Source: Leucoraja ocellata (taxonomy: Eukaryota). From it: a DNA stretch of 64,000 nucleotides. The translations under genes were made by a program, and so were the position numbers. Positions within the stretch are counted from its first letter, which is position 1; the number at the start of each line of letters is the position of its first letter. Where the stretch lies: the NCBI GenBank assembly GCA_036785375.1, contig JAWMAR010000406.1, positions 1,116,001-1,180,000 of the forward strand. The letters run 5' to 3'. Below, piece after piece: positions 1 through 63,631 of the stretch. The notes under the pieces were generated by a model. It made no database searches and was not told the origin of the DNA. It was given only the letters and a program-made list of their open reading frames with translations.

Positions 1-1181
1 GATTATGCCTCGAGTGCCAGAAACCAGTTTTGGTTTCCTACTTGCCCAAGAGGGCATGCAACAAAAGTGCACTTGAATAGGTTAATAGGAGAGTCCATGA
101 TTAGAGAAGGAATATAACAGGCCTATATCTTCCAGAATTTTGAAAACTGAGGTGCATACATATAGAAATTATTAGATCCTGAGAGGGCAAAAGCACAGAT
201 GCTATTTCCCTGGCTCGATTGACTGGAATGAGGGATTATGGCTTCAGGATGAGGTCAGCAATTTAGAAGGGAATGGAAGAAATGACTTCACTCAAAGTGT
301 GCAAGATCTTGATTGAAAACATGTATGCTTGAATGATATTTCGTCATTTCTTTGACTGGATACCATGCAACAAAAAAGCTTATTACTCTACCTTGGTACA
401 TATGACAATAATAACATTAAGCTAAACTAAATCTTAAAGATAGAATAGAAACATAGAAAATAGATGCAGGAGTAGGCCATTCGGCATTTCAAGCCAGCGC
501 CGCCATTCAATATGATCATGGTATATCATCCAAAATCAGTACCCCGTTCTCCCCATATCCCTTGATTCCATTAGCCCAAAGAGCTATCCCACCTCCAAGG
601 AATGTGAGCATTCAATGTGCATTTTCACCAAAGGAATCAAGGCATTTGGAGATGGGCAAGGAAAACAGTGCTGTAAAAGTTCTGCCATAATCATACTGTC
701 AATAATAAAACAATGATAAAAATAACTAAACTAAACCTTAAAGATATCCCACTTCTGAGCGATGTGAGCATTCAATGAGCATTTTCACAAAAGGAATCAA
801 GGCATTTGGATAAAGGCAAGGAAAACAGTGTTGTAAAAGATCTGCCATAATCTTACTGAGTAGTGGACAGGCCTTAAGATTCTCCATGCTCTACTAGCTG
901 CGCCACTGCACTGCCTGTATTTTGATAAGCGTGAACATTTATAGAATTTGATAAGAGACAACCTTTCCTTGGAAAGCGAAATAAAACTGACAGATTCTGG
1001 AAATTTGACATAAAACAGAAATAGCTGCAAACACTGCAGGTCATGCAGCATCTGTGAAAAAAAGAAACAGAAATGACATTTCAGGTCCGAGAATGTTATC
1101 TTTACTTCTCTTTCTGTAGATGCTGTTGGACCTGCAGAGTGTTTCCAGCATTTTCGGTTTGTGATTTGGCTTCTCCTTTAC

Positions 1182-1344
1182 CTTGTCACTGTGCTCCATG
1201 AACTCAGCCAGGTTAAGCAGTGTTTGCGTGACCTCAGCAATGTCCTGGGAAATTAAAGCTTGCTCAATACTTCTGATCAGCTCATCTTGCTGAGATTCAT
1301 GCAGTTCCGACCAACAGGAGAGGAAGGCTGCATTAAACAGGTCC
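1182..1344 (-). CDS. mtor: mTOR exon 27 (163 nt), last exon in window
   Basis: [54 protein letters not shown]; tacag / gtaaag. Confidence 0.96.
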
Positions 1345-4300
1345 CTGTATTACAAGAAAGTCCAAAACGTTAACATGTAGTGAGAAAAACAAATATCAAA
1401 ATATTTGTTCACTATAATTAAAAAATGAAAAATTAGAAATGTAGTTTTAATCAAGCATTTTTTACTTATGCTTACAATACAGGAGACGGCCATTTAACAC
1501 ATGGGGTCCATTCCAGTTCCAAGAGTAGTAATCCCTTTGGTCCCATTAACGTTATCCCTATTTCCTTGTATCCTTCCAAATTTATTTATGACTAATTTAT
1601 TTCCCTTTTACTGTGGGCACTGTGTGGACTGATTACTCTCCAAAGTGGCTAATTTCCCAGTGCAAGCCTAGACAGAGACTGTTAACTGTTCATTCAACGA
1701 TGGACAGCAGTGTCAAAACCAGATCGGACCCAGATTTTTCACTGTGGCTTGGAAACTTTGGCATTTTTTCACCGAAAATATATAATTGCCTTCCCAGACT
1801 GAACCCCCAACCCTATGCTAGCTCATTTTGGCTTAAAAGAAAACATCAGTGCATAAACATTAGCCAAATTACCTCAGGTTCAAAAGCAATAGGGTTCCAC
1901 ATTGGTGCTTAATATTATTGCTTTCTTGTACGAGGTAAAAAAAAACTTACAGCTTCTGAAAAAATTATATTCTCTCATTGACAGCAGAATAATTTGCAAC
2001 GGTTACTACATAGAATATTCCAGAGCAAAGCACTTTAATAGAATAATCACCAATCTAATTCATATGCATGACCCATTTTGCAATTACAACCTCATGAGTT
2101 ATTTGTTGTCATGCAATTGCAAAGAAAGGATTATTTGGAATAATATGAAATTTGGAAAATTAATAATCAGTAAATCTATATAAATGCACAGTATTGGTGA
2201 AAACAAGTTGCTGTATAGTCATTATTATATGTCTTTGTATAAGTTGTCATAACCACATATTTATTCCAAAAACCTCTTAAAATATATATTACCCACAATG
2301 AGAATCTACAAAATCACAATTTTTTTCCCTTTTATTCTTATTTTAGCCAACGTATTTAATTTGTTCTTTAAGCACCAGGATATTTGAATGGTATTACTTT
2401 CATGATTTTCACGGTATTACTTTCATGATTTTCACAAGGCTGTCGACACTGGGGACTCTAATAATACCACTGGGTGTTATGTGGCAGCAACCCAAGTCAG
2501 CCCAGGGCAAAGGATTTGAAGGAAATAAAATTAATTCATAACGAAATCCGAAAATTATGGTCAGCAGATCACGCAGCTTCAGTAGAAAGAGAAATAAAGG
2601 GATTTTGACCTAAAATGGTAACTCTGTTTCCCTTTCCACAAATATTGTCTGACCTGTTAATATTTTGGACATTTTGTTTCTATTTCAGATTTCCAATATC
2701 CGCAGTTTTTACATTTTCAAATTAACTCCACAGTTGATTTTTTTTCAAATATAGGAAACTCTCGAATTAAGAAATGAAAATACGTGAAGCGAGGAAATTT
2801 ATGAAATTATTTCTGCATCATTTTGAACAAAAGAATATAAGTGCAAGAGGAACCCACTCAACCCATCAAACCTACCCTGCCATTTTATATAAGAAAGAAC
2901 TGCAGATGCTGGAACAATTGAAGGTAGACAAAAAATGCTGGAGAAACCTAGCAGGTGAGGCAGCATCTATGGAGAGAAGGTATAGGCGACGTTTCGGGCG
3001 TGTCCAAAGTCATGAGGAGCACACATGAGGTAAAAAGCCACAATCTTTACGCCAAGGTAGAGGAGTATAAAACTCAAGGGCATAAGATTTAAGATGAGAG
3101 GAGAAGGATTTAAGTGACGGAAGGGGTAACTTTCTCATGCAGAGAATAGTGCATACTTGGAATGAGCTGCCAGAGGAAGTGGCAAAATACAATTACAACT
3201 ACTACATTTAATAGACATTTAGATAGGTACATGGACAAAATGTTTGGAGGGTTATGGGCTAGCCAATGACAAGTGGGGCTAGATCAGTTAGGCAATTGTT
3301 TTATAATCTGACATAAATGTCTCAGATTTACTCTTTTCTCTTGCTAACAAATGTTTAAGTGCATGTTATTTGTAAGGAAGTGGGGAGATCACTGATAATG
3401 GAAAATCAGTTAGTGTCATCTCTGGTGATTGGTTCAGTCTGATCACAATCTTCATTGGGGATCACTTGGGCCCCGAGGAATATCTCTAGTTCTGAGGTGG
3501 GCAAGAATCATTTGAGGGATCCACTGATTCTGCCACAAGTGGACTTGTTTATGCATGATACCTGGCATTGAGAGTCAAGGACTTCAGTGCCTTCCCATAT
3601 ATCGTTACTTCACATTGAGCTGTTGTGTGCCAGGGCCACACACGTCAGTGAGGATGTAACACTCCTCCCAGGAGATACTGAGAACATCCTTGAAACATTT
3701 TCTCTGCCCTCTGATGTGCATCAATGTGAAAATGTTGATTTAAGGAATGCCAATTAAATATTTGATCTGCATTTATGATCTACTATTTGGCAATAAGTTT
3801 TTAAAAAAAAGAGGATTTTTACCTGGCCAAGGGGTTGTAGGCCTGAGCAAGCGGCCAACATGAGCGGAGTGCAGGTGATGGGGATTCTTTCAGTAATTCC
3901 ACGCTGAGTCGCCTCAGCCATTCCATCCAGTCATCTTTAGAGACTCTCCTGGCTGCTCCCCATGCCTGAAACAGAAGCATAACTGCTTACAATTGCTCCT
4001 TTGTGACACATTTTCAAGCAGTTGAGTGTAGCAGTTTGGGCAGGTACTGGCTAACTCATTACTGTGGACTATGAATTTTATTAATGAAAGAGCCAATTGA
4101 AACGTTAGCTACTATCAAAGATACAATTAAATGAAACTGTTAATGCCTGCTTCATAATAGTGAACAAAGGAATGCCATGAATGTATTGGCATTCATCTGT
4201 TAATAAACACCCTCTAAACCATTCATCTTAAAAACATGATTGTTGTTTCTAATTAGTGGCAGGTATTTCTATGGAAATTAATAAAATTACAGGCGCCATT

Positions 4301-7300: not shown

Positions 7301-10300
7301 CACGAAAACAGACCCTTTCGCTCAAACTACACCAATCCCCATTATTCCTCTTCCATTCGTATCAACTCCTCTCTTACCACCTAATTCTACTGTCACCCAC
7401 CTAACTACACCAGAGGCAATTTACAAACCCCGTGGCGTGCCTCTGAGGTTTTACAAGGACCTAGCATTCCTCATTTTGACCGAGCCATACAAATGCAAAC
7501 CATGTCATTTCAATAAAGGGCACCTCAAGTGCTTTCAAAAAGGGCAAGGATACGGTTTGTCAGAAGTGAGGTTGGAAGGAGCAGAAAATATGTAGCAAAG
7601 GGCCAGGTAGAGTGTTATTTGCATTACAAGTATTACATTTTAATTATACAAGTTAGAATATTTTAAATTTAGCAAACTTAATAGTGAACTCTAACTTTTA
7701 AAAACGATGGCATTTGTGTTTTGATTATGTCCCACCACCCCAGTCACCCCGACCCATTCCCCTCCTCCATCTGTTCATCTTATGCCCTTCTGATATCAGA
7801 CTATGATCATTTTCCGTTCATCCCCCCTCTTTCTCTGGCCCCTTTCACCGATATCTCGCCCTCCGACTTTACATCTCACCCCTATTCCTATCTACGACCC
7901 TTTGTCTTCTTTTCACCTCTAGCCTTTGCTATCATCTCCATCCATCTGCCAACCACTCGTCACGTATGTATCCACCTGGCACTTGCCAGGCTTTGCCCAA
8001 TCCCACATAGCTTTTCCAGCCTTCTTTCCCCCACTCCATTAATCAGAAGAAGGACCCCCCCCCCCCCCCACCTGAAACGCATCTTTCCATTCCCACCACA
8101 GATGCTGCTTGACCCGCTGAGTTTCTCTAGCACTTGTTTTTGCTCAAGATTCCCACATCTGTCGACTCCTATGTCTCTTTTTTTCCTCTCAAAATGGTTT
8201 CACAAATGAGTACAGGAGATTGAATGGCACCTGGAGAACAGCAAGGGAGGGTGCTCCAGTGTTCTGCCCAATATTTTACGCTCAAATAACATTACAAACA
8301 TTTTGCACTAAGAACCTTTCTTTTCCCTCTCCCCTGACCCTCAGTCTGAAACGTCACCTATTCCTTTTCTCCAGAGATTCTGCCTGACCCGCTGATTTTC
8401 TCCAGCTTTTTGCATCTATCTGAGGAATATCATACTGTTTATTATCACTTTGCTCTTGCAAGTCATTGATGTGCACATGTTGGCTGGTGTATTTCCTGCA
8501 TTACCACTGGAATTGATCTTCAAAGGGCTGATATTAGCTGAAAAAATCATTGGGGATCTCTGATGACAATAAGCAGCCAAATAAATATCCTTGACACATT
8601 TTCCAAGGTTAGGGAGCTCTCCTCCCAGTATCATATTAAAAATTGCCTATTGTTCACCACTCGTAAACCTATTAACTGATCAAAACACTTTATTATGTGC
8701 AAATTGACAGCTGCATTTTCATAATTTACAGTACTGTGCACTTCAAAAGCCCTTCGTCAGCAGTTTATTTTAGGGTAACCCAGGGTCTCGAAAGATATTA
8801 CAAAAATACAGGACGTTCTTATTTTTCTTCCCTATATTACAAGCGAATGAGTAAGCAACTGATAATTTTGTTTAAATATGATGAAATTAGAATCACAGAA
8901 ACTTTAGGAAAGTGAAGGCCATCCCGCCCATTGTGTTTCTCCTTGAAGAAAATGTGGAACTCAATCTAATGCCAACTTCCAGCAAGAGGCCTGTATGAAT
9001 TTTTTCCTTAATAGTTATACTTTTCTCGTCTCCATTTCACTCTCTCCAGCACAATCATCTCGTTCACATTATATGCTGATAAGGCCTGTATGTCAAACTT
9101 GAGCAATGATTCAATGAAAACGGTATTTTTGAAAGATTGAGCACACATTCATGTCATTAAAAATAAATCAGAAGTCCCGACCGCAGTTTTCTTTCGTAGT
9201 AATGTTTTAAGGGCATATTCTATGTAAATGAATGCCACCTAAAAGTCACCTGAGGCTTTAAATTTATAAAATTTATAACCCACGTCAAATAAAATAACAG
9301 TTAACGAGTACATTCATAGTGGAGGAAATTCCTACTAAATGAAAGGTTACACTTTTAAGCATCATTTAAATTCATTATATGTATAAAAAACTGTCCAGGA
9401 AAATGGATTGAGCTTGCAGTTTTATTCTGCCTCGGCACATTTTATTGAAAATGTTCTGGAGTTCCTCCAGTAAACTGCTTTAGGTGCAGGCATAATCATT
9501 CTAGTTGTAGATAAATACGGCAGCCAGTTTATACAAAGGTCCTTCTGACAATAAGAAAATTAAGATGGTTTTTTAAAAAGTCTTGACTTGAGGAGAAAAG
9601 TTAGTCAAAACACTGGCGCCACAGTGGAGTTGCCTTACAGCGCCAGAGACATAGATTCGAACCTGACTATGGGTGCTGTCTGTAATGAGTTTGTACATTC
9701 CCCTTGTGATCACGTGGGTTTTCTCTGGGTGCTCCGGTTTCCTCCAACATTCCAGACGTGCAGGTTTGTAGGTTAATTGACCAGTGAATTGTCCCCGGTG
9801 TGTAGGATAGAACTAGTGTACGTGTGATCGCTGGTCGATGCAAACTCAGTGGGTGAAAGGGCCTGTTTCCACGATGTATCTCTATACTTAAACTAAACAC
9901 GGAAAAGGCTCTTCAAAAAGTGTAATGACATATTTAAGACTCAGCCACTGGGACAGGAAACGTAACCTCAGTGAGACTTCTGAATCCAAAGACAATGTCA
10001 ACGACAATAGTGCATGAAACATCACCCTGGAACACTTCTGAAATCCAGGAGTGGGGCTCGAGACCATCACCGGCAAATAACCTTAGGAAATGCAATTGTA
10101 CTCTGTTCACATGAAGCCAAATAAAGCAATCCTGATTCCAAAATAAACATCTGCAACAGATTCTCCTAAAAATCGTAATTTAAAACTCATTAGATCATAT
10201 CTAGTGGTGAAAGTTTCAGCATGGAATGTGCTTGTCTTGAGTTTAGTAACCAGCTGAGGTTATGAATCAGTGAATCCCTTTATATACTTAGCCAAGTTTA

Positions 10301-13300
10301 TATCCAGATGCACATCATAATGCTCAGTTTTCAACTGAACTTGTCAGGGATTATCTTTCTTCCTTATTATAATAGAGAATGCAATCAGTCCACCAAACAG
10401 GTCCAATGCCAATTCCAAGTCCCAATCCAAGTCCAAATATATATTATCACATGCACAAGCACAGTGAGGTACAGGGAACATCTTCAGCATCACAGGCACA
10501 ACACACAAAACATAAACCCAAAGGAATGTTACGTATATTAAGGGGAAAAGGGGAACTTGAGAGGAAAAAGACCCCCCCCCCCATAAACCAAGGTGATTTC
10601 ATCTATGTGTGAAGGTGCAGGAGATAGGCAAAGTCTTCGATGAATACTTCTCCTCTGCTTTGACCACAGTGAAAGACATGACGACTAAATGAAGTTGGGA
10701 ACGTTAATGGGGATGTCTTGAGGATAGTCCGTATTACAGTTGTGGAGGTGCTGGATATTCTAAAACTTATGATGGCAGATAAACCTCCCAGTTTTGATTA
10801 GGGATAACCAAGGACACACCATGAGAAACTAGAGAAGAAATTACAAGAACTCTAGCTGAGATGTATGAATCATCGCAAGAAATGGGTGAGGAGCTGGAAG
10901 AGTGCAGAATGGCTAATGTTGTGCCTCTATTTAAGAAGGGCTGTGATGAAAAACCTGGAGAACTATAGACCAGTAACTTGAACATCCATGATAGGAGAGT
11001 TACTGAAGAAGATTCTGAGGGATAAGATATACATGTAATTCCAAAGAATGAGGTTGATTATGGATAATCAGCATGGGTGGGAGATGTCTAATGAATTTGC
11101 TTGTTGTTTGAAGAAGTAACAAAGGAGGTTGATGAGAGCAGAGCTGGAAACATAGTTTACATTTCATTTCCCAGCAAGGCTTTTAATAAGATTCTCTTTT
11201 TTTTTTAATAAGGCAGGTGGCCTGCGACTAGTGGTGTGCCTCAGAGATCGATACCTCTTTGGGATGTCAAACCAGGGCAGGACCAAAGATGGCTTTGGGA
11301 ATGCTGACCTTTATCAATCAGGGTATTGACCATAGAAGTTGGGACTCTATGTTACAGCTGTACATCGCGTTGATGCAGCTGCATTTGGAATATTGTGATC
11401 AGTTTTTGTCACCTTCCGATAGGAAAGATGTCATGAAGTTTGATTGAGTATAGAGAAGATTTACGGGGATGTTACCAGGACTTGACGGCCAGAGCAAATG
11501 GGACGGGTGAAGTAATCCCAAGACAGGAATACAATCTGTTCCATTTCATCTCTTCTAATTTTTCCTGCAACTTATTTTCTTTCACATACTTATCAACCCT
11601 TAAACTTTCACTTGTCATATGTCTACACTAAAACATAATTTACTGTGGACCATTCATCTTCCAGCATGCTTTTGGGATGTGGGATGAACCCAATGCACCC
11701 AGCCAAAACCTGTGTGGTATTGAAGGAAACTTCACACACAAAATAACCAAAGTCAGGAACAAACCCAGCCCCCCCCAGCTGTGAGGCAACAGCATACCCC
11801 GTCTGCCATTCATGGAACAGGTCCAGGCAGCCAACTAAAGCCATAAGCTGCTTCACATTGTGATTTTTCAATCACTTGCACATTGACGTACCAACACTCA
11901 GAGAATGAGAGATCAATCACCAATTTACAGATGTAAGAAAGAACCTCAGATGCTGGTAAAAATCGAAGGTAGACACAAAATGCTGGAGTAACTCAGCGGG
12001 TGAGGCAGCATCTATGTATGGAGAGAAAGAATCGGTGATGTTTTGAGTCGAGACCCTTCTTCAGAATGATTTACAGATAATTTACAGGAGCTATAAATTT
12101 AAGAGACCCTTCTTCAGACAATTTATAGGAACTGGATCAGTCCCGTGGCTCATTCCTTAAAAGCTAGTATAAATATATTGCCATATATTAACTGCAATAT
12201 TTTCAATTTATCACAAGCATCACCACGTACATTGATAGCCCATGAACAGATAAATTGAAAAGATAATGCAAGCCAAATGGATGATTGCTTCATTGTTTCC
12301 ATTCACGCTCAGTTCTCGACACGGATACAAAAGTTACCAATGGATCTCACACAGCTTTTGGCATCCAGAATTGAGGTATTCCCAAATGCAATAAAATAGA
12401 TTCTAGAAATTGAGAAATAAAGCACCACAGATGCTGGAAGTCTAAACAAAAGTGAAATAAAACTGTGCATAATTAACAGATGAGGTAATACCTAGGGGGA
12501 AAAAATGATTTTAACTTTTCAGGTGATGACTATTCATCATCTGGAAAAGTGTGGAAACAGTACGTTTTAAGTTGCAGAGCATGGGAGTGGGAGGAGTATG
12601 ATTGTGATGGGGTGTAAACCATCCTGCACAGGAGACATGTGTAGGAAGGAACTGTAGATGCAGAAACTGTAGTTTACACCGAAGATAGACTAAAATGCTG
12701 GAGTAACTCAGCGGGTCATGCAGCATCTCTGGGGAGAAGGAATGGGTGACGTTTCAGGTCGACCCCTCCTCAGACCTTCTGAAAAAGGGTCTCAACCCGA
12801 AATGTCACCCATCCCTTCTCGCCAGAGATGCTGCTTGCCCTGCTGAGTTACTCCAGCAATTTGTGTCTTATCTTCTGCACAGGAGACAATTGCTTTGAGC
12901 GGGGGAATTGAATATTTGTTGTCTACGACTAACCTGTCTGGAGGAGTGTGAACAAAGGAAAATGAAGGATAGTGGTGAAAAATACTTGTTGGAGATGTGA
13001 TGCACAACACTACATTTGGTGAAATTAGAATGGACTGGATATAATCTCCCAGTCAGAAACAGAGCAAAAGTCTTCTACAAATCTCTTCATTGTCTGTGTT
13101 TTCAACATCATGTACCCTCTCTCACCAGCCTAACCATAAAACCAATATTGACAATGAACAAACTCAATCAAACAAACTTAGATCATACACCATCCCCTAT
13201 AACAAAGATGCCTAATTTTAGTTTTCATTCAACATTTAAGTTCTATAAACAATTAAAAGATATCTCACCGCACATTTCTATTGAGTCTTATGCACCACAG

Positions 13301-16300
13301 AAATGGTCACTTCAGACCACCTCATCCATGTTGCCCATTTTTGTCCATCTACACAAATCCCCATCCCCCTGTGCCAGCATTAGTAGTTACATTCTGTGTT
13401 GCCATTGTAATTATTCATTGTAATGCCTCTTAAACATGGATATACTTTTTGATCCCACCAACCACCCTAGCAGCACATTCCAGATATCAGCCACTCACCA
13501 TGTAAACAAAAAGCTTACTGCTCAGATCACTTTAAAAGTTCCCTCACCTTTAAACTGTGCCCCCCCCCCCCCACCCCCGCCAGGATTATAAAAGTCTATT
13601 TTTATTTATTTTTATTTCCAGACTATTTCCACTTTCTTGTCGGAAGATCAAGTCAACAGAGAAGTATTTTTCTGACTATCAGAGTATCTCAAACAGTAAT
13701 TTGATGTAAAGATTCAAAAACCACAGTAAGTTTTGATCATGCAAGCAGAAACAAAAAAACCTACAGGGTGCTGAGGTAGCTAACCACAAAGAAAACCAAC
13801 ATTTAAAATAATATATAATTTAAGCACCAGCAAAAAAATTAGATGTTTTTTGTTGTTGTTTTTGTGGTGAGTTGGGGCACAGAACATGTAATTGTTATTT
13901 TACATGAATTTAGTAGTTGAAAAGAAAAATGCAGAAGATTACAGGATCAAATGGGTGTCTCCATGAAGTGCAATAAGTCGACTAGTCAGTCTGTGGGCTT
14001 TAAGCATGTTATTTTACTGTTATGTGTTTAGCATTATTAATTAACTACTTTTAGCTGACCATGAGACATCTTCTAATTGCTTTTTGTACTTAGATGTTGA
14101 ATGAAAACTAAATGAGGTCATAACCTCAGAATTAAAGGGCACTCTTGTAAGGAGGAACTTCTTTAGTTAGAGGATAGTTAATCTGTGGAACTCATTGCCA
14201 CAGAGGGCTGTGGAGTCCAAATCAGTGCACATCTTAATTAGAACGGGGGTCAAGGATTATGGGGAGAAGGCAGGAACATGGGATTATGTGGCAGAGATCA
14301 GCCGTGATTGAATGGCAGAGTAGACTCGGTGGGCCGAATTACCTAATTCTACTCCTATAACTAGTGAAATACTTAATTGCATTCGACAACATTAACAATG
14401 TAGATAAACACAGTATCGTTAACTAGTTGAGAAGGTAGTTAGATTGTCTTTACAAGGAATGCACAAAGTACAAGGAAAAACACCATTCACGATTGACATT
14501 TCAATCCCATCTTGAGCCTGTCCAGGCTTTCCTCAATATGTCAATTGGTGAAATTGTAGGTGAATATCTCTAATTGTATCATTCCTTTGCATATTCTGTA
14601 CCGACACATCTTCTAAGTCCCCTTCAGCTTTGAATTGGTTTTCTGTTGTTGAAGAATAGATACTGCATCTTTTCAATCATTTAAAAGATGTCACTACTCA
14701 CCTGCCCAAAAGATTAACCCACTTACAGTAATTAACCAAACACAACCTTTTCCTCCATACCATTTTACTGCTGTAGAAATTTGTAAGATCAGGAAAATAA
14801 ATAATCTTCCACAAATAAATTCTTAGGTTCATAAAATAAGTGCTGATATGATTAAAATTAAAATTGCACTAAAAATACAAGAATTTAGATTAAGTTTTGT
14901 TTTGCACTTTGAAACAAATGATTTCACTGTTTCAGTTGTACTTGATGGAACTATGACGCTACATTTCTACATGTTAAAAGCCAAAGCATGCTGTGCAAGG
15001 TTTCTGTATTAAAAATATCTCCTGCGTACCGCTCTGTACTGCATCACTGCATTTAATGTCCTTCTATGAATGCTTCAAAAGGCACCACTTTTCAGTCCGG
15101 AGCTTTTCACAGTGGACTACAGTACACCAAAGACACTGTTTATATTGCTAACCAAGAGAAAAGTATTAAACATTCGTTTCACTCACACGCAAAAATCTGC
15201 CATTCATTGAAAGGAAATACAACTCACACTTCACTAGATACAGAACTTAGCCAAGAATAGCAACTTTACATCTTGATTCCTTTCAGTAAACATTCATTAA
15301 ATGTCCAGTTATTTTTAAAAAAGTGATTTTACAGCTACATTTTAAAAATACAAGTTCCAAGACATCTATTCATGAAGCACTTGTGTTTAGCATACCATCT
15401 CAACCAATTACCAGACGCTCCCTGACTTATGTACGGGTTAGGTCCCACAGACCCTTGCGTAAGTCGGATGTAATGCAAGTTGGAAACGGAAGTGCGCACC
15501 TGAAACCTTACTATCCAACACGGAGACTATGGGTGTGTCTGGGTCTCTGTGCATGTGATGCTGCTACAAGCAAGATTTTCGTTGTACTTGTACCTCACAG
15601 TACTTGTGCATACAACAAAGTCAATTTTGATTTTCATTCTTGTGTACTGTTTGTTTTTGGTGTGTTATCGTGCTAATATACCTGCAAACCTGCAGCGAGT
15701 AAAAATTGTATTGTTCCGGTCCTGGTACATATTCAGTTGCAGATTAAATTATGAAAATACGAAAAGAACCAAAGAAAAAAAATTTGAGTGCTTTCGCTGG
15801 TAGTTACGCAGTCTCGACAGAATTATGCAACATTTGGCATAGCCATAATTTCAAAGGGAAAATTGAGAACTCAATACTTGGATTGTTTGATTTTTCACAG
15901 AACCTTGCCTGTTTTATGTCAGCCTCATTACAGAAGGCTGTCTTACTTTAGACAAAGAACTGTAAACATTCAAACAAGCAAAGTATATTTGGGTGCAGAA
16001 TGTATTTTGCGCATGAACATACTTTGTGGTTGGGTCTTTCGATTTGGTTAGTAGAATAAAGGCAATGGGTTTCAGTTCTATAACACCAACAAATTGGTAC
16101 ACAACTTTCTCATAACCTGATTTTGAGAAGGGCTAAACTTTCTGGGCAACAAAGCATAAGCACTTACCTCAAAAAGCAGTTACTATTTCACCCCCAACCA
16201 GATTCTTATTGAAGGAAGTCCAAAGAAGGTTCTCAACCCAAAACATTACCTGCACATTTCCCTCTGCAGATAGTGCCTCTCCCATCGAGTTCCTCCAGCA

Positions 16301-25300: not shown

Positions 25301-25687
25301 CTTCAACAAGATCTCAATGAACGGGTAGGTACAGATTGTATTTCGGATCAACTGGGGGTCATCTCATCATCAAAAGATCTGCGACTGCTCGCTGTTTAGG
25401 TTTCAGGATGAAAAATAATTACTCTGCACTGTCATTTTTCAGCAGCAGATGTGTTGTGCACAGATAGCCTGGAGCTCAGTTGTGCTGCTTTGTCTGCGAA
25501 GAGGCAGAAATGTTTGATCTTGCCCGTGCCTTTAAGGCCACATTTTCAATACTCTATACAGGATTTTACAGTCACTTGTTAATGAATGAGGTGAGAGAGA
25601 AATTGTAGCAGCATGAAAAATCTATGATCTCATTTCAATCTTTCCCTTCAAAAAATAAAATTAGTTTGCATCTCCAAATACAGTGTT

Positions 25688-25723
<36 letters not shown>

Positions 25724-49700: not shown

Positions 49701-52700
49701 GAGTGGTGAGAATCAGACAAGCCCGTAAGGCAGCAACGGCACCTTCTCTTATGGCCTGTTTGGAATCCCAGACGGCAAAGAATATATTGTCAAAGAAAGC
49801 CTGCACTTGCTGGAAGAAGAAAGTAGGTGCGCTGACTGCCAACTCCCGCAAGATCAGAACCTAGAATTTAAAGAAAACAGAGTTTCTCGGTTACTCTTAA
49901 AAAGCTTGATGTGCAGTCTGTGCAAAAGATAATAGGTATGCTTCTGTTTTTCCCAAGAAATATAGAGGTGAGAATATTACCTTGGAATAAGATATTTTAT
50001 TCTTAGACAAATAGTTTCACATTATTTCATTGGACACTTCATAAAAGTAAATCTTGTTTCTTTGTAAATTAACAAAAAAAAAATCACAAAAAAAATATCA
50101 TGGTACAGTTTAGAAACAGCTTGGGAATATTTGCAACAGTTAGGGCGCAATTTTGTAAAATGGAACACGTTATTTGAAGAAACAAATAATTCCGTAATGA
50201 CAATCTACCCAACCTCAGACTTGCGTCTCTTTGAATTTTACTGTAGGATATATAGACTATATATACGCTGTTCTGCTATAAGCCCATACTGTATAATTCT
50301 ACTATTCATGGAAAATATGTGCAGTAGGCCATTCGGCCCTTCAAGCCAGCACCGCCATTCAATATGATCATGGCTGATCATCCAAAATCAGTACCCCGTT
50401 CCTGCTTTCCCCCTATATCCCTTGATTCAATTAGCCCCAAGAGATATATCTAACTCCTAAGAAATATAACTAACTCTTGTTCCCTTGGATCATTCAAAAT
50501 TCCTATGATCGATATAAAGAAATTGCATCAACAATCTTTTTTGTATTTATCCATGAGGTGAATTAATCATCTAATCAAACATAAGTTAATTCAGGGATCT
50601 ATGCAAAACTAGGCCATCTTAGTTGGTGAGTTTGCTAATCTTAACACCGTCATAGTTGATTCTACAGGGGGAGGACAGGTGTGGAATGCTGACAAATAAA
50701 TCAATTAAGCTTTTTGGAGCCAGAATGTCACCAATCCCATGGCATGATTCAGGTCATTAGATAAATTCAGGATTGAACGCTTTCATGGCTAATATATACT
50801 ATCTAAACTCAACCGTCAAAAATAATGTACAGAAACATGGAATCCAGAAACTGTCAGAGCCGATAAAACAATATCTCAATGTACATCACTATCTTCAGGA
50901 GAAAAGTAGGAAGTCTGGAGCTAAAAGAAAAAAACCCTTCAAAATGAATAATTCATGCTTTAAAAGTGAGGCCAAAGGGCATTACACAACATTAGCATAG
51001 ATAAGTTCATGACAAACTCAGCTCTGAAAGAGTATATTCTAAATACTTGACTCATGTGTATAAGGGGCCATCTTATGAGCAAGACATTACATTGAAATGA
51101 GCCTGTTCTAATGGGTTAAATGTTACATGATTTGCTTTGGCGCTTTAAGAAATAGAATTTTCCTTGTGTTCAACTTTTCTTGGTCAGTAAAAGTACTGAA
51201 AAATGTTTTAATTGTTTGCTTAAAAAATGGAAATCTGTAATATAAATAGAGTGCCAAAAACACTCAGCAAGTTGGTCAATATCTGTGTCGGCAAGTAACT
51301 GAGATCTATCCGAGATCTGAAATTAACTAAGGACTGTACTAATCCTAGCTAATTAACCTACCAATGCAACCTTTGCAATCTCAGCCCACAGGGATCTCAG
51401 TTGACAGCATCTCCAACTTACAGAAACTTTGGGTCACGGGCAGTTCTCGAAACTCTCATGTAATCTGCAGAGTGTCTATACATTAAAAAGAATAGATGTC
51501 CTGTTCAGAATTTCAGTGATTCAGATTTTCTGTGGTTTGGCATCTGTCAAATCCATAGAGTAGACACAAAATGCTGGAGTAACTCAGCGGGACAGGCAGC
51601 TTCTCTGGAGAAGAAATGGGTAAGGTTTCGAGTCCCTAGAGTGTCAGTCTAGAGAATTTCAAGTTATAATTAATTGTATGTGACGCACTCGGATATTTCT
51701 GTCTGTTTCTATATTAATGCATGCCACGTTTTGGAAACTGGGCGTATATGACGTAAAAAATAAAGAAAACATCTCTTAACCAAACTAGCATATTAAAACC
51801 ATGTAAGTTAATTAAAAAGGACAGCTTTGTGCAATAATCCTGAATGGAAATAACTTGTTCTGAAATACCCTGGGGTGACGCATTTTACAAACAAGTATCT
51901 TTTGGAAAATGTTGTTGACAATCGATAAAATGGTATGCTGATTTTGTGCTAACCAAGAGGACTATTGTACAAGAAAACTCTAATTTGCTGTGATAATTAG
52001 TAAAATCTTCCTTATTGTTAACCCTATTGAATCACATGCTCGTTGCAATTAGAATGCACCAAATGGGAGACAACCGGCTTCCTTGAACGTAAGGAAATGT
52101 TTAAAAAACATGAAAGGGTCAGCTTCCATCAACACCTTCTTGTAGTCAGCTAAATAAATAGAAATAGACCAACTACCTCTAAACCAAAGTAGTATTAGAA
52201 TGGACAAGAGGTATTGCAAGTTGCCAAACTAGCTTTTACACAAGAAGCAGATTTACCAATAGGTTCCTGTTTTGTTTCTGCAATCCCCCACCCACCCGGA
52301 GAAGTTGAATCACACAATTTTAATGCTTCCACCCTTTTGTAACTTTCACGTTGGTAAAACCAGTTGAAGGCAGCAATTACCGCAGCGTGACGCTTTCCTT
52401 CATTGCGGTCTGCTCCCAGCCATTCCAGAGCACGTTTGACTTCAAACTCCACGTACTCAGCTGTGAAGGTATCACCAGCCATAGAAAGGCAGCCCATGGC
52501 TTTTGAAGCCATTTCCATTACAACTGGGTCACTGGATGGAAATAGGTTCCGTAGGTAATTGGCAAACCGTGTAATTCGGGTCGCACTTCCTCCTTCAACC
52601 CCAATGAGACTTACTGCATTTGGATTAAAAAACAATTTCACACTTCAGATAACAGGGAAAAATGACTGATTATCACAGTAAGCAAACTAAAAAAGTTGAG

Positions 52701-55700
52701 AATAATATTTGTAGCTACAATCATAAATAGATATCCTATCAGCATATTTAGAAATATTCAGACATATTAGCTTCAAAATACATTTTCTGTGATTATCCAT
52801 TCAAAAGAAAATAACCGTGCATTCATACATAATATAAAATTCCTCGTTTTTCAATCCATTCTAAGCTTTTTGACAGTACCTCAAGATTAAAATAGGTACA
52901 CAAACTAAAATAAAGCAGATAATCTGCTATCCAACAATTAAGAAAGGCTGGTACACAAAAAAGCTGGAGAAACTCAGCGGGTGCAGCAGCATCTATGGAG
53001 CGAAGGAAATAGGCAACGTTTCGGGCCGAAACCCTTCTTCAGACTTAATTAAGAAAGGCTGATGGCTCAGCAACTGGTTCACCATGCAATCATTGTTCCC
53101 TTTCAACTCACTGGGGCCTCTGTTCCCCAGCGCCCCTTCAATTTACCAGGGCCTATGTTTCCCTGCTCCCTTTAAACTCACAAGGGCCCCATTTCTAATG
53201 TTTCCTTTAAACTGTCAAGGGCCCCATGTCAGCTAATCGGGTTTAAGATAATAGAGTTCACTGCAAAATGTATTATATTACCGCATAAGATCTAAAAAAA
53301 ATGTGCATTAAATGTGTGTTCAGGTATTAGAAGGATTAACGTCCACTGGTCCCCAAAATCTGTCGGGTTGGTGCCACCAAAGTGTGCCAGATTATCAGAA
53401 TTCTATGGTGCTTTCCAAGGAAACAAAAAGACAATGCTACAAATTGCTCATTTCCCTGTAGTTATTAACTTTAAAAATTATTCTTCACAACGCACTAATT
53501 AGAGCGAATACCATCCCACCACAGGATACCCTGGAGTGTGTTAAAATGTGACACGACAAACTCTCGCATAGATTTTAAACACAGACAGAAATTTTACAAC
53601 ATAGTTTTTATTTTCACTTGTACCAAACCAACATACCAATTGCCAGGATACCTCCCTTCCTCTCATTCACATCGGAACTGGAAACCAGTTCAAAAATGTG
53701 ATGGTTCAATTCATCATAGAATGAGGTGACTTCCTCTTGGTTAACCTAAATAGGCACATATTAGAAGTTAAAACATTGTAAACCTGTGCATGTCATTTTG
53801 ATTAGCATTAAAACGTTTCTTAAATCCTCGCATATAATTCATCACAAGATACCAGTTGATGCAAAGAATTTAAGGCCGACCAGCTGGCACTATACGTTTA
53901 GTTATTATCTCACTGTTTAATTGTTTACCCAGGAATGAGATAGGATCGTGGGAGATTAAAAAATACAAGATAGCAGATTGGTCACTGGCAAACACTGGGA
54001 GGACTGAGGAGCCCCGAAATATTTTATAGCCATCGTTTCTCAAAAAGGGATCCAATACAAGTCCATGTGAAAGAATTTTCATTCACTCTAAACATGTGTT
54101 TTCTAAGAAAAAGAAACTTGGACTGGACACTGCCTGACTTTGCTGGCAGCTCTGCATGGAAATGATGGCAATTCTCAGCATAAATACAGGGAAGCTTCAG
54201 GACAACTGCATGCATGGCAAATATACAGGTGTCCCCAGTGATTTCAAAGCTGCAAGCAGTTCTTGTATTCCCAAGAGAATCCAACGGCAGATAAGATTTG
54301 TGTAGGAAGGAACTGCGGATTCTGGTTTACACTGAAGATAGACACAAGAAGTCGGGGTAACTCAGCAGGTCAGGCAGCAACTCTGGAGAAAAGGAATAGG
54401 TTTATGTTTCGGGTCGAGAAAGGTCTGTCGAAGGGCCTTGACCGAAATAACACATGTTCCTTTTCTCCGGAGATGCTGCCTGACCTCCGAGTTAGTCCAG
54501 CTTTTTGTGTCTATCTTCGGCAGATAAGAGAAGCTGAGATACTCAACAATAAGGTGGGGAATGGGCTCTTGTGACCTTAAGCAGGATCCATACGCCCATT
54601 CACTACAACTAACATTAGGCTCCAAATAAAGTAGGCGATAGACACATAACCTCAATTATTTATGATTTTAATTATTTAAAAGGCTTATATTTTGTCAATT
54701 TTTACTTTTTCAGCAAAAAAGACTAGAACAAAGCGAAAAAAATTGAATAATTTAATACACTTCCGTCAGGTCACCCCGAGGTGCATAACATTTTGAGAGG
54801 CACAGTCCTTTCCTCAGGGCGGAAATGTCAAGTACTGGAGGGCATGGGTGGAAATGACAATTACTGAAGGACATAGGTTTAAGGCGAGAGGGGGCAGTTT
54901 AAAGGATATTTATAAGGCAAGTGTTTCTTTTCCGCAGAGAGTGGTAGGCACCTGGAATGTGCTGCCAGGGAAGGTGGTAGAAACCGATATGATAGAAATA
55001 TTTAAAAGGCATTTCGACAGACACGTGGAAATAGAGGCATGTGGACTACGTGCAGACAGATGGGGTGGATTAGATTGGTGCCACGGTCGGAACAGACATA
55101 AAGTGCCCGCCTGTATTGTTCTATGTTCTAAGTTGACAATCATTTATTTTATTCATATTAATTTTACAGTGCTTCTGGACGTCACAAACATTGCCCCAGG
55201 GAGAATTGAGAAACAGAGGAAACTTTGCATACAAGTCCAAGGATCCTCGAAGGAGGCTTCACAAGTATATTGGATGATGAAAAAAAGTATGTGGGATAAC
55301 TCACCTACATTAGCCAGGATAGAGAATGAGAGCAGAGAAGTTATGGTCAAACTTTATAAAACATTAGCAAAGCCACATTTGGAATACTAAGTGCCGTTCT
55401 GGACCCATAAGAATGATTACACTCGAGAGGATGCAAAGTGGATTCACCAGGATGTTGTCTGGGATAGAGTGACTCAGTTAAGAGGAGAGACTATGCAATT
55501 TAATGACCTTGACAGCTTTAAAAGTTGGCAAAGCTGGGGTAGAGCTTTACCGGTTGTCAAATATACAGTGAGGTGTCAAGGGCATCAGAGAACCTTGGTC
55601 AAGGTCAGGCCACTGATTTGGGCCTTGACACCTTATTACAGGACTTTTGTGGCCATTTTGATCTTCCAGAACTGGAGTAATTGACCCCGGGAAATGGGGA

Positions 55701-56386: not shown

Positions 56387-56724
56387 GGTGTAATCTAAAG
56401 AGCTGCAGATTCTGCAGAAGGAAACAAATCAAGATTAGAGTGCGCGTCAACATCTTCTCAATAACAACAAGATTATTCTATTTATATTGAAATCGGTATT
56501 GTTGAAAAGAACATTTCTGAATGGACATTACATTTTATTTTGGTTTATACTCTTGAAGGTACTGTATGTGCATGGTCACCAAATGCACAAAATGTTCTAT
56601 CTAAAATCAACAGAAAAAAAATTCTGAAAATATACGAAACTTGAACATATTTTATGTTCTGCATGTTGTTGCACCATAATGTAATACTACGAAAAAAATT
56701 GTGCAAAAATTAATTTGAGATAAA

Positions 56725-56995
56725 CAGTGCTTCGGCTCACGAAATCCGCGCTGACCAGTGGTCCCCGCCCACAAGCACTATCCTACACACTCGGGACAAT
56801 TGCCAATCTTTACCGAAGCCAATTAACCCACAAACCTGCACATCCTTGGAATGTGGGAGGAAACCGGAGTTCGCAGGGAAAAACCACAGGGTCACAAGAA
56901 CGTTCAAAACTCTGTACAAACAGCACCCATAGCCAGGATCAAATCTGGGTCTGTGGCAAAGCAAGGTACCAAATCTACCATTGCGTCACGATGCA
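56725..56995 (-). mobile_element. V-SINE (HE1-like), reverse orientation
   Basis: Reverse complement of the family. Confidence 0.78.
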
Positions 56996-58942
56996 GGCCA
57001 TTCTTCCTCAATCTTTGGCTACACAGACAACTTGCATTGCCCAGTAAGAACGGAGCAACAAGAATAGGACAGAACTTCCAAGCAGCTTTGAGCTATGTGC
57101 ACCTTGTTGCTCACCTACTCGAAACAAATCAGTTATTTTATGTGGCTATTCAATCCCTAGCCTTCTTGCAGAAACCATCCTGGCATAAATCTAATCATGT
57201 TACAGGACCACAAGCTCCACCCAAATTGATGGTCAAAGAAACTTGACATAGTTAATCACTTGCTTAGCCAGCTGTCAAAATACGATTCCAACTGTCTCTC
57301 ATATACAGTCACGGACAACTGTGAATTAAAAAAATAATTAAAAGTAAAAGTTAAATACAAATATTTCAGCGAACAGTGATTTTAAAATTATGCAAAATAT
57401 CTTTCTAATCCATGTTCTTTGCAATTGATTCTTCTGTTGAAAAGAACAGAGATGCTGTTCCTTCACCGAGGTTTACCCAACCCAGGTTACAGGTTCAGTA
57501 GATACTTCCCGAGTGATGCAATATTGTTGAATACCCATCAGGAAGTCCTGAACTTCTTGATACTTACCAGGCAAATGCTGATGGTTCCATGTGGAATTGC
57601 TGTCATTTCGCAGGAAAATTCAGGCCATTAACCAGAGAAATGTGCCATTTGTCATGACCAAGGTTACATTACGCACACAATCACTTAGGATGTAAAAGAT
57701 CTTTCTGCTTCTCAATTATACATTTTCCATTCCCTCTGATATAAATGTGTTCTTACTTTTCACCGGGCTCTGCGTAGTCAATAAAACTATTTTCCAGAAA
57801 CTAATACTGCAATTTTGTTGGATACAAGAGCCTACAGATGCTGAAATATTGAGCAAAAATCTAAGTGTTGGATGAACTCAGCCAGTCAAGCAGCGTCTGT
57901 GGGGAAATGGACAGATGATGTTTCTGGTTCGGTCCTTTCTTCAGACTGAGAAATCTAAGGGTCTTGACATAAATTATCATCACTCCATTCCCTGTACAGA
58001 AGCTGCCTGACCGCTGAACTCATCCACAATTTTGTTTGTTGCCCCAATCTTGTTGTGAGCAGGACTTGTTCTCCTCTTTCCTGACTGACCATTCAACAGT
58101 GCCATTGGCCAATGGAAAAGGGAAATCCATGACTGTGGTGCAATGCATTAATCTGTTAGCATATTCCTGTTACTTCATACTTTAAATTATTTCAAATATC
58201 TTCCATTCCAATAGCACATGGTTACTTCTGCATTCTTTTATAAGCTTCTAAAGTCAGGAATAATCTCATAGTTATTTGTTACATCTATTCCCCCCCTCTT
58301 ATGTAATTCGGGTATTCAACATTTGCAAAATATAAACAAATCAAAATGCTGCCAGATATTTCAAACAAATTAACAGGATTGCACATATTTTTTTCTTTCT
58401 CTTTCTAAAAACTTGTGAACATACAATTAGAGGCTGAACCCTTTATGATAATCATATAATACCAACACTTTCAACAGCTAACATGTTTCTCATAGGATAT
58501 TTTTCCAATTGGAAGAATACCTGTTGAGGCAGTCTTCACTTCAGCTGGACCGGGAACAGTTTTAATGAATTGAATAATTAGAGTTATTGATAAAGCTTTA
58601 ACCTAAAGAGGAGTGTTCTGGTAAGGGGTAATTTAGAAAGTTAATGAGATAGAACAAGGCAATAATGTAGGGTATCAAAATGGATAATGATAACCAAAGT
58701 GTGGGACGAATGAGCAGAGCAAATCAACATAAGTCTTATTGGAGTCACAACAATTTGTTAGATGGCAAAATTAATGGTCTTTTAATACATGCAGCAATAT
58801 TTGATCGCTATTATAAATATGTGATTCCAAAGTAATCAAGATTGGGAATTCTAGGATGGTTAACTTTCTGCTTTATGCCAATTTACAAATAGTTCATGTA
58901 GTAATGAAGGAATTATTACCTATCGGCAAATAATCGTTCATC

Positions 58943-59160
58943 AGAAGATACACACAAAATGCCGGAGTAACTCAGCGGGACAAGCAGCATCTCTTTATAG
59001 AAGAAATGGGTGATGTTTCTGAGAGTCTCAGTCTGAAGAAGGATCTCGACCTGAAACGTCACCCATTCCATCTATCCAGAGATGGTGCTTGCCCCGCTGA
59101 GTTCTTCCAGCATTTCATTTTCAATCTTCAATGCAAACCAGCAACTGAAGAACCTCCTGC
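58943..59160. mobile_element. Fold-back Penelope-like element with hammerhead-like core at 59033-59060 (+)
   Basis: CTGAAGAAGGATCTCGACCTGAAACGTC inside inverted arms. Confidence 0.7.
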
Positions 59161-59352
59161 TTCGTCCTATCTATGTAACTGGTTCCCACATACGCCACAA
59201 CAATTGGGTATTTATTTGACCACTTCAATTTCCTCGCCAGCACCAACATGTTCTTTATCATGTCACAGGACAGGTAGCTTTCAGTTCATTGCTGTACATC
59301 ACAGCATCTACCCCCCCCCCCTAACAGTGTCTATCTGATCATTACTTCATCC

Positions 59353-59447
59353 GTCTGAAGGGTCTCGACCTGAAATTTCAACTATTCCTTCGCTCCATCA
59401 ATGCTGCCTCACCCGCTGAGTTTCTCCAGCATTTTTGTCTACGTTCT
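59353..59447 (+). mobile_element. Short Penelope-like fragment, 12-bp TSD
   Basis: TSD ATTACTTCATCC at 59341-59352 and 59448-59459; starts GTCTGAAGGGTCTCGACC. Confidence 0.78.
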
Positions 59448-59774
59448 ATTACTTCATCCCTTTTCACTTTCCTAACATGAATGGTGCTCATTTCCACAGT
59501 GCAAACTGCTGCCACAGGCTGCAAGAATTTCATGTACCTTAGATAAGTGCAAAATCTAAGGCTCTACCAATGCCATCTTCAAACCCCATGCCTATCTCAT
59601 CTGTAGTCACTCTCTCCTCTGCTCTTGACTGGACATGACTGCAGTACTTTAAGCTGTCAGTATGACTATCAACTGGTGCGTCAAGGTACATTTCATGAGC
59701 TGTAATGCATCCTAGTGTCTGAGTATGTGTCCAGCTTATGGCAAATATTACACATACCGCAGCTTTACTTCAGT

Positions 59775-60021
59775 AGACGTTAGAGGTACAGCGCGGAAAT
59801 AGGTCCTTCGGCCCATGGAGTCCACGCCGACAAGCGATCACCCCCTACACACGAGGGACAATTTACACTTTTACCACAGCCAATTAACCTATAAACCTGT
59901 ACGTCTTTGGAGTGTGGTAGAAAAGCGGAGCACCTGGAGAAAACCCACACATGGAGAACATACAAACTGCATAGTGACAGCACCCGTAGTTAGGATCGAA
60001 TCCGGGACTCTGGCGCTGTAA
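59775..60021 (-). mobile_element. V-SINE (HE1-like), reverse orientation
   Basis: Reverse complement of the family. Confidence 0.8.
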
Positions 60022-62644: not shown

Positions 62645-63150
62645 ATTGGAATATTGGTTTTGCATACAATACAGGTCACACCACTACAGGAAGAATGTGA
62701 AAGCTTTGGAGACTGTGCCAAAGAGGTTTACCAGAATGCTGTCTAGATTAAAGGAGATTAATGTCAGAGCCTCATAGAAGTAGATTCAATTATGAGGGGA
62801 ATAGATGGGGCAAACTGTCATATCCATTTCCCTCGGGTGGAAATGTCAAAGATTAGAAGTCATAACTTTAAGGTCAAAGGGGCAAAGTTTAAAGAATACA
62901 TGCGGGGCAATTTGTTTTTTTACAGAGGCTGGTGGGTGCCTGGAATTTGCTACCAGGGATGGCAGTGGAGGCAGATGCAGTAGTAGCGTTTAAGAGGCTT
63001 TTAGATGGGTACATGGATGTGCAGGGAATGGAGGGGTATTGATCATGTGCAGGCAGTTGAGATTGGTTTAGCTTGGCATCATGTTTGGTGTAGATATTCT
63101 GGGCCAAAGGGCTTGTTCCTGTGCAGTACTTTTCTACGTTCTATATGTTT
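62645..63150 (+). mobile_element. CR1-type LINE 3' fragment
   Basis: ALETVPKRFTRML, FPRVEMSKIRSHNFKVKGAKFK, tail gggccaaagggcttgttcctgtgc. Confidence 0.8.
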
Positions 63151-63209
63151 AAGACTTTGTTCAATCAGTGTTCTTGTCATGATTTTATACATTTCTATCA
63201 GATCAAATA

Positions 63210-63631
63210 CAGAAAACTCTCGTTATAACCCGACCATGGGGGAGTGGGACAATGACATAGTGTCCTCTATTGCCGATCGTCCGCTATAACCGAGTAAGGG
63301 ATTCACTCCCAACAGTCACTCCATGAAACAATGAGTTGTTTTCAAAAATAAAGTTATTTTTAACAATGAAAAATGTATTTTCTTACTGAAAACTAAAAAT
63401 ACTAACGGCTGTTTGTTACATTGTTTGGTGGAGTTAAGTGTCAATTGGAGAGATTTCTTGTTAATTTCAATGCCCAGTCAATTTCAATGCCCTGTGAATT
63501 TCAATGACCTCCACAATGTAACTAGCAGCCTGAAGGGTCTCGACCCGAAATGTCACCCAAACGTTATAGCCAAACAGTCGGTTACAACCAAATTCCTTTA
63601 TAAAGAGGCCCGTAATAAAAAGGGTTTACTG
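63210..63631. mobile_element. Tigger/pogo-like non-autonomous DNA transposon
   Basis: TA|CAGAAAACTCTCGTTATAAC ... GTAATAAAAAGGGTTTACTG|TA: imperfect TIRs with TA flanks. Confidence 0.65.

Follow-up and report, generated by a model that had tools for sequence, protein, structure and literature searches.

The 64,000-nucleotide stretch analysed here (positions 1,116,001 to 1,180,000 of contig JAWMAR010000406.1, Leucoraja ocellata assembly GCA_036785375.1; called the window below) carries about 20 related copies of a short repeat with a hammerhead motif. Very probably these repeats are the terminal pseudo-long terminal repeat (pLTR), made of a minimal hammerhead motif and an optional tail of ∼35 nt, of Penelope-like elements (PLEs) of the Neptune/Nematis type in the same genome, and are likely the shortest products of target-primed insertion. 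An initial annotation, made from the letters of the window alone, had considered them a separate non-autonomous, retrozyme-like family which is mobilised by a Penelope partner with reverse transcriptase (RT) and GIY-YIG domains. The Penelope partner is borne out by our results. The separate family is not, as the arm is very probably the terminal pLTR of the autonomous PLE itself, tandem units are rare and no major cluster consists of solo copies only. Thus, the short repeats are likely the shortest truncated insertions of a PLE with protein-coding copies elsewhere in the genome and not a new retrozyme family. The element class as well as each structural feature is already known, and we do not describe a new kind of retroelement.

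By self-BLAST and direct reading one family of arms of ∼140 nt was recognised at most of the positions listed in the initial annotation. A profile hidden Markov model of the arm was built from 120 of 123 distinct near-full arms taken from the window and from loci fetched elsewhere in the genome (numbered L below). With a threshold of E ≤ 1e-3 it finds 29 arms in the window and 330 arms in a 614-kb sample comprising the window, 200 kb of flanks and 350 kb of arbitrarily chosen stretches, whereas the reversed 614 kb yielded none. An independent 400-kb sample with 214 arms served as replicate.

The coding element attached to the arm

When the short stretch of sequence upstream of the window copy at 8340 was used as a query, loci coding for the C-terminal end of a GIY-YIG protein were found. 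Walking upstream from there revealed a young family (matches 97–99% identical) in which RT motifs, a C-x4-C-xx-C motif, a GIY-YIG domain with CCHH residues, the stop codon, the 3′ untranslated region (UTR) and the arm follow each other in this order. The 3′UTR is pyrimidine-rich and mostly 95–135 nt long, and the arm sits about 115 nt past the stop codon of the open reading frame (ORF). Arm and tail also precede the ORF and continue into the 5′ region. Such an upstream direct pLTR is present in L150 and L154 (probably one duplicated insertion), where the tail leads into the 5′ region and an ATG, as well as in L208; the continuity from tail to 5′UTR is partly seen also in L229 and L091. The element body measures about 4 kb.

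The GIY-YIG end, the 3′UTR and the arm are collinear in the majority of loci in two directed samples of 30. When GIY-YIG C-terminal matches were taken without selection, 20 of 24 had a same-strand arm within 450 nt and only one an opposite-strand arm (two loci give two matches each), and in the replicate the arm follows six of 11 GIY-YIG ends. As to the window itself, 27 of its 29 arms match some ORF-attached arm with an identity of 74–100%, and the copy at 52951 does not differ over 96 nt (100% identity) from the arm that follows the GIY-YIG ORF of L078. PLE coding fragments are numerous in the genome, and tblastn found none in the window.

Pfam recognises RVT_1 (E 8.7e-5) and GIY-YIG (E ∼1e-3), neither of which reaches the gathering cut-off. 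A stretch of 590 aa has 1775 homologues; the best 120 are mostly RT proteins, many of them also with GIY-YIG, and the best named ones come from sharks and a ray. A search of solved structures with this RT stretch returned nothing meaningful. We base the assignment to the endonuclease-bearing (EN+) PLEs on the RT with C-terminal GIY-YIG linked to the arm, on the presence of the arm on both sides of the ORF, the tail and the inverted pLTRs, and on the minimal hammerhead motif. The zinc-finger motif C-x4-C-xx-C suggests, as a sequence feature, the Neptune/Nematis type and has no power to separate Neptune from Nematis. The expected full-length Penelope elements ending in the repeat were recovered in part: RT/GIY-YIG ORFs followed by the arm exist, but no intact full-length copy was found. 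The PLE anatomy published in PMC8557442, PMC3846280, PMC11167929 and PMC4209133 (here and below, papers are cited for the portions consulted) agrees with the features of these repeats.

Some of the coding loci show peculiarities. In the upstream pLTR of L154 (∼717–900) and L150 (∼705–890) no stop codon interrupts the reading frame of the first ORF ATG when it is followed upstream across tail and arm, up to the TGA in the ribozyme core, and a short overlapping upstream ORF starts in another frame from an ATG inside the arm. L103, L104, L105 and L114, a duplicated group of copies, carry an in-frame expansion of Pro/His/Thr-rich tandem repeats ahead of the PLE RT. Multi-kb segments with one long PLE copy are 94–100% identical across several contigs (L126, L127, L132, L133 and L138–L148) and represent segmental duplications or uncollapsed haplotypes.

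Target sites, tails and fold-backs

Exact target site duplications (TSDs) of 10–18 bp flank 46 of 276 strong insertions as compared to three of 600 mismatched-flank controls, and their sequences are somewhat AT-rich (0.65 vs 0.57). These results agree with the earlier proposal of retrotransposition with TSDs of variable length, for which at least five window copies with exact TSDs of 12–15 bp had been put forward. We find such TSDs at 12638 (14 bp), 39622 (12 bp), 52951 (15 bp), 59353 (12 bp), 54297 (12 bp by reading, 9 bp by scan) and 31800 (14 bp, ambiguous).

The 3′ ends of the arms are bimodal and lie near profile positions 104 and 139: among 207 strong arms 84 are short, 101 are long and 16 end in between, and among 125 arms of the replicate the respective numbers are 54, 63 and 6. 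The two preferred sites are thus ∼35 nt apart, which is the optional tail of 30–40 bp. Close pairs of arms are mostly arranged head-to-head (107 of 130, with three tail-to-tail and 20 direct pairs). In these fold-backs a long, tailed arm is generally combined with a short, tail-less one, namely in 74 of 88 classifiable cases (49 of 55, p 1.8e-9 against 0.5, and 25 of 33 in the replicate; 19 further fold-backs with an unclassified end were omitted from this count). Single arms are long or short in similar numbers (83 and 79; replicate 67 and 46). ORF-bearing insertions of kilobase length follow the long+short rule and have TSDs, for example, L086 (1476 bp, 14-bp TSD) and L046 (1210 bp, 10-bp TSD). 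Thus, the tiny fold-backs and these long insertions form one continuum, of which the former are the short extreme. An inverted pLTR or an inverted truncated copy at the 5′ end was found in L131, L135 and L086.

On the basis of in vitro work on the anole Poseidon element we suggest that the protein of the element nicks both target strands and that reverse transcription would start internally at two sites, which would make the tail polymorphic. If each strand is primed once, at a different one of the two sites, and both products are joined head to head, a long+short fold-back between TSDs would result. The protein of the anole PLE, a predicted dimer, nicks as well as extends both strands, and the tail of that element lies between two internal RT start sites (PMC11167929). 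It has also been proposed that head-to-head junctions are produced by self-priming on an antisense template (PMC3846280). Long perfect hairpins might be lost once inserted, so that long/long pairs could become depleted, but this fails to account for the shortage of short/short pairs.

At L076 and L035 arm fragments of either orientation are locally crowded together, and the region from stem II to the cleavage site forms short tandem repeats, possibly minisatellite seeds from pLTRs. A few local tandem clusters of the arm do occur, as in L076.

The hammerhead motif, the 5′ boundary and competing explanations

The consensus of the arm fits a minimal type I hammerhead, for which cleavage is predicted. 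The core is conserved, an extra A precedes a stem II of 4–5 bp starting with G-C, a palindromic ACGT replaces stem III, stem I has 2 bp, and the youngest subfamily has GUU at the cleavage triplet. The same traits characterise the minimal hammerhead ribozymes (min-HHRs) of metazoan PLEs (PMC4209133). With 44 matches of a hammerhead descriptor in 614 kb as compared to one or two in shuffles, we can affirm that the motif is of the hammerhead type, its activity being a prediction; three matches fall into the window, where accordingly only three of the 29 arms still fit the descriptor. The conservation of the core is not preferential, an outcome that the initial annotation had listed as speaking against its proposal: the core decays like the rest of the arm (mean 0.92 vs median 0.90 downstream), and all 11 core bases are kept in 48 of 131 copies. 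Stem II had been described as variable yet paired. Indeed the three variants given are present and the pairs hold in 110–119 of ∼130 copies, but the changes are loop changes, CpG decay and one-sided G-U swaps, two-sided changes being nearly absent. As nearly all change in stem II is one-sided or CpG decay, the check for covariation gives no independent evidence of selection on structure. In three of three natural copies the hammerhead fold is not the minimum-energy structure of monomers or dimers, which is uninformative for a motif reported to be protein-assisted. An Rfam scan of the window gave no hammerhead at E ≤ 1, four weak unrelated matches, and no tRNA, 5S or 7SL match; thus curated RNA families give no support, and there is no sign of a Pol III head of a short interspersed element (SINE).

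The 5′ ends were tabulated against the predicted cleavage site (after profile position 37), as had been recommended. Position 14 or lower is reached by 196 of 330 arms and by 123 of 214 in the replicate, whereas only 13 and nine arms, respectively, start at positions 35–40. Most short copies start a few nucleotides upstream of the core, about 30 nt before the predicted cleavage site, and hence self-cleavage is not what sets the copy ends. Solo copies stop within about 0–5 nt upstream of the core, and in seven TSD-anchored cases 0–6 nt lie between TSD and core. Altogether 43 of 294 strong arms extend into the 3′UTR, 130 are solo and 121 are part of fold-backs. The upstream 3′UTR is C/T-rich and ends with CAG/T in most extended copies.

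We lean towards the explanation that this sharp boundary just upstream of the core is the 5′ end of the RNA with TCAGT as an initiator-like sequence. TCAGT resembles the initiator consensus. Priming in the 5′ pLTR of such a transcript would run off after 100–140 nt, similar to a strong-stop product, and might generate the large excess of short copies. Relative to the putative start, the ribozyme's ACGT occupies +27 to +30 and is partly like the downstream element RGACGTGY of Penelope, and an initiator-like TCACT has been noted in a pLTR of Adineta. Transcript reads were available from two oligo-dT runs of one study with the label of a related species. The arm is represented ∼4,000–5,000-fold in both directions, the GIY-YIG part ∼200–300-fold and the 3′UTR ∼25–45-fold. 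The majority of the arm reads (93%) continue into unlike sequence, with no pile-up of starts or ends among those listed; the loose read ends listed are found at −6, −3 and −2 as well as at both 3′ sites (short and long), just as in the genomic copies. This pattern fits passive transcription of embedded copies and is unable to locate a start site.

With a smaller yet substantial probability the boundary has another origin while the PLE identity is kept. Either the RT falls off at the C-rich tract or the boundary is a 3′ splice acceptor consisting of a polypyrimidine tract and CAG directly before helix I. The C/T-rich 3′UTR closing in CAG/T in most extended copies would suit both variants, and for the acceptor it can be added that the intron end of Penelope from D. 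virilis maps to the 5′ end of helix I (PMC4209133). Nevertheless, the short distance between TSD and core in the seven anchored solo copies means that no upstream exon was copied, and young solo copies begin mostly at −3 to 0, ahead of reaching the C-run.

Rather speculative is the idea that a solo pLTR of ∼100–140 nt constitutes a complete minimal mobile unit, with an initiator-like start and a downstream promoter motif overlapping the hammerhead, two fixed priming sites, and a dimer that would obligately use one site per strand. Its strong-stop-like product would account for about 5% of the genome of a vertebrate and may be able to mobilise itself again. If this is true, the 74 of 88 fold-backs with long+short arms would be the genomic signature of asymmetric two-strand priming.

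Several observations weigh against the assignment of the repeats to the PLE and against the proposed start site. All copies recovered in four upstream-walking searches are frameshifted and none has an intact ORF. A single copy with two matching direct pLTRs was not recovered; in L208 the pLTR is present upstream, but an interruption affects the 3′ part of this copy. In the replicate the arm is missing within 450 nt of five of 11 GIY-YIG ends. Only 43 of 294 strong arms extend into the 3′UTR, a skew beyond what gradual 5′ truncation alone would give, and thus an additional cause is needed. An exact TSD of at least 10 bp is retained in only 46 of 276 insertions, and 14 of 88 classified fold-backs break the long+short rule (10 short/short, four long/long). 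Concerning the start site, the oligo-dT reads of the related species have no site where many molecules begin or end, and the 5′ boundary is spread over about 0 to −5.

The same skew could be explained by a non-autonomous, SINE-like or retrozyme-like family derived from the pLTR, in which solo pLTRs are transcribed and re-copied in trans by the PLE protein, yielding most of the short copies. The ratio of 251 short to 43 3′UTR-extended copies and the sharp 5′ boundary they have in common are in line with this, non-autonomous elements derived from pLTRs have been described in Xenopus and Chlamydomonas, and in Adineta a pLTR suffices for mobilisation in trans. Nevertheless, we consider such a family unlikely. 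When the 294 arms, a small sample against millions of copies, were clustered, UTR-extended copies occurred in four of four clusters (K=4) and in five of six at K=6 (the exception has eight members), and neither a major cluster of solo copies only nor a separate master was found. In the largest cluster no majority difference separates short from extended copies; those of the other clusters are mostly of the CpG type or confined to few copies. Moreover, for one solo copy there is an ORF-attached arm of 100% identity, and direct tandem pairs account for only 20 of 130 close pairs. Some secondary amplification from solo copies may nevertheless take place. The window has no tandem array of the arm. 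Membership among the retrozymes is not supported, on account of the rarity of head-to-tail units (these 20 direct pairs), the lack of selective core conservation and the failure to find a separate master in this sample.

Much less probable still is that hammerhead self-cleavage releases the copied RNA, as in the circular or linear cycle of retrozymes, so that copy ends equal cleavage ends. This would be compatible with the minimal type I consensus and the excess of descriptor matches over shuffles. It conflicts with the scarcity of arms starting near the cleavage site, with a core that lacks preferential conservation and with an active fold that is not the minimum-energy fold in the natural copies, and the anole element inserts without need for cleavage (PMC11167929). 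Finally, a miniature inverted-repeat transposable element (MITE) of a DNA transposon, the outcome that the initial annotation had set against its own proposal and which would regard the fold-backs as terminal inverted repeats (107 of 437 insertions), is refuted by the linkage of the arm to the collinear RT/GIY-YIG ORF and by the variable TSD length of 10–18 bp, and has next to no probability also because 330 of the 437 insertions are single-armed and the arms are of unequal length.

Copies in the window and relation to known elements

The 29 arms of the window group into 21 insertions, of which eight are head-to-head fold-backs. The profile confirms 19 of the 21 positions listed in the initial annotation. 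The other two, 2500–2710 and 48480, have weak BLAST matches and look like old decayed relatives: 2561..2709 is a probable relative (69% over 158 nt to the 970 copy) and 48482..48503 (+) a possible old fragment with a weak 22-nt BLAST match, both without profile match. The youngest copy is a 96-bp tail-less solo pLTR at 52951..53046 (−) with a 15-bp TSD and a descriptor-fitting minimal hammerhead, the core of which begins at 53042. A 95-bp tail-less solo arm at 59353..59447 (+) has a core broken by a 3-nt deletion and a 12-bp TSD by scan. It is correct that these two single arms start close to the core, in fact within 4 nt.

Further single arms were found with the profile. A full tailed arm with a 10-bp TSD (TSD scan) lies at 11931..12069 (−), and a tailed arm with truncated hammerhead end (profile 26–141), 90% identical to an ORF-attached arm, at 2885..2999 (−). 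Tail-less arms are located at 8315..8427 (+), with a core deletion and ∼25 nt of PLE 3′UTR upstream, at 31796..31912 (−), where the 14-bp flanking repeat found by scan lies in a TTTAG microsatellite and the TSD is hence ambiguous, and at 51560..51634 (−) with the hammerhead end truncated. The stretch 7840..8136 (+) comprises an older arm (8040–8136) behind a pyrimidine-rich, 3′UTR-like stretch shared with other loci, and another older single arm is found at 16215..16339 (+). Three arm fragments lie within 42029..42801 (42029–42067 +, 42605–42681 + and 42801–42752 −), and 63530..63561 (+) is a fragment of the hammerhead region.

Among the fold-backs, likewise found with the profile, a tailed arm (−) is joined to a tail-less arm (+) at 12637..12875 (14-bp TSD by scan) and at 29479..29688, where the (+) core fits the hammerhead descriptor at 29595, and to a shorter arm (+) at 54298..54520 (TSD 9 bp by scan, 12 bp by reading). 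A tail-less arm (−) precedes a tailed arm (+) at 39618..39823 (12-bp TSD by scan) and at 58941..59156. Old fold-backs are present at 986..1155 (decayed; arms 1088–986 − and 1092–1155 +, low profile scores of 28.5 and 21.6 bits), at 36459..36660 and at 57827..58039 (tailed and tail-less arm, a weak old copy with a 10-bp TSD by scan). The copies at 970–1160, 2500–2710, 36460–36660, 42600–42680 and 57825–58040 form an older, more divergent layer with the same pLTR type and fold-back geometry, which suggests long-lived activity in successive subfamilies.

The window contains an mTOR exon on the minus strand (20857–21240, Pfam mTOR_dom, E 2e-29), and the minus-strand ORFs 39781–40194, 40761–41144, 47821–48255 and 52195–52641 we take to be further mTOR exons. 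All repeat copies in the window appear to be intronic in mTOR. Other inverted pairs, from different repeat families, lie at 17371–17817 and 27607–28008 (arms of 50 and 49 nt, about 300–350 nt apart). The segments 54797–55390 (−) and about 3020–3190 (+) presumably are fragments resembling the 3′ ends of CR1-type long interspersed elements.

The element has much in common with the EN+ PLEs Neptune and Nematis (Craig et al. 2021, PMC8557442): RT, CX2-5CxxC and C-terminal GIY-YIG, heavy 5′ truncation, direct and inverted pLTRs, a tail of 30–40 bp at one end only and a hammerhead motif in the pLTR. It differs in its long Pro-rich N-terminal region, and the clade is assigned here from a motif, not from a tree. 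As to copy number, we extrapolate from 394 arms in 75 dispersed 10-kb stretches (5.25 per stretch, SD 4.1) to about 1.8 million arms or 5.0% of the bases of the 3.44-Gb assembly, an estimate given that the stretches were arbitrary, not strictly random, and the assembly contains near-identical duplicated regions; tens of thousands of copies are given for Naiads in that study. With Poseidon of Anolis carolinensis (PAc; Frangieh et al. 2024, PMC11167929) our element shares two preferred 3′ end sites past the hammerhead bounding the tail, the lack of any sign that cleavage defines the ends, and somewhat AT-rich TSDs. However, the ribozyme of PAc contains the start of the ORF, while in our element the first in-frame ATG observed is ∼35 nt past the tail, and PAc belongs to the Penelope/Poseidon clade, described without the extra Zn-finger-like motif seen here (PMC8557442). 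The min-HHRs of metazoan PLEs (Cervera and De la Pena 2014, PMC4209133) number thousands per genome (about 4,000–9,000); helix I is only 2 bp here, and the portions consulted of that report do not mention cartilaginous fish. The non-LTR retrozymes (Li, Clavereau, Pollet, bioRxiv 10.64898/2026.07.22.740005) are likewise non-coding, have a type I hammerhead and are related to PLE pLTRs. In contrast to their definition, which asks for tandem units of which two or more in succession carry a hammerhead, the arms described here are single or head-to-head and collinear with an autonomous element.

Dispersed single hammerhead motifs have already been ascribed to truncated PLEs, and pLTRs with min-HHRs, tails and inverted repeats are published. 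Our literature search, with supplements and repeat libraries outside its scope, found no description of this family in cartilaginous fish. The nearest mentions are Penelope in the whale shark genome and one chondrichthyan surveyed in bioRxiv 10.64898/2026.07.22.740005. In the portions examined of the PLE literature we found no quantification of the long+short fold-back pairing.

For genome annotation these results mean that an estimated 5% of the assembly is PLE pLTR, which could be mislabelled as SINE, MITE or retrozyme. The number of hammerhead motifs would exceed the thousands reported in other vertebrates by orders of magnitude. In their regular ends the copies likely preserve useful information on how the PLEs, a poorly understood class, insert, and more than one million short insertions, young ones included, would permit a precise test of what the ribozyme contributes and of whether priming is internal at two sites and takes place on both strands. 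The present sample already shows strong long+short pairing and ends that ignore the cleavage site, which provides a testable mechanistic lead on the tails and inverted pLTRs of PLEs.

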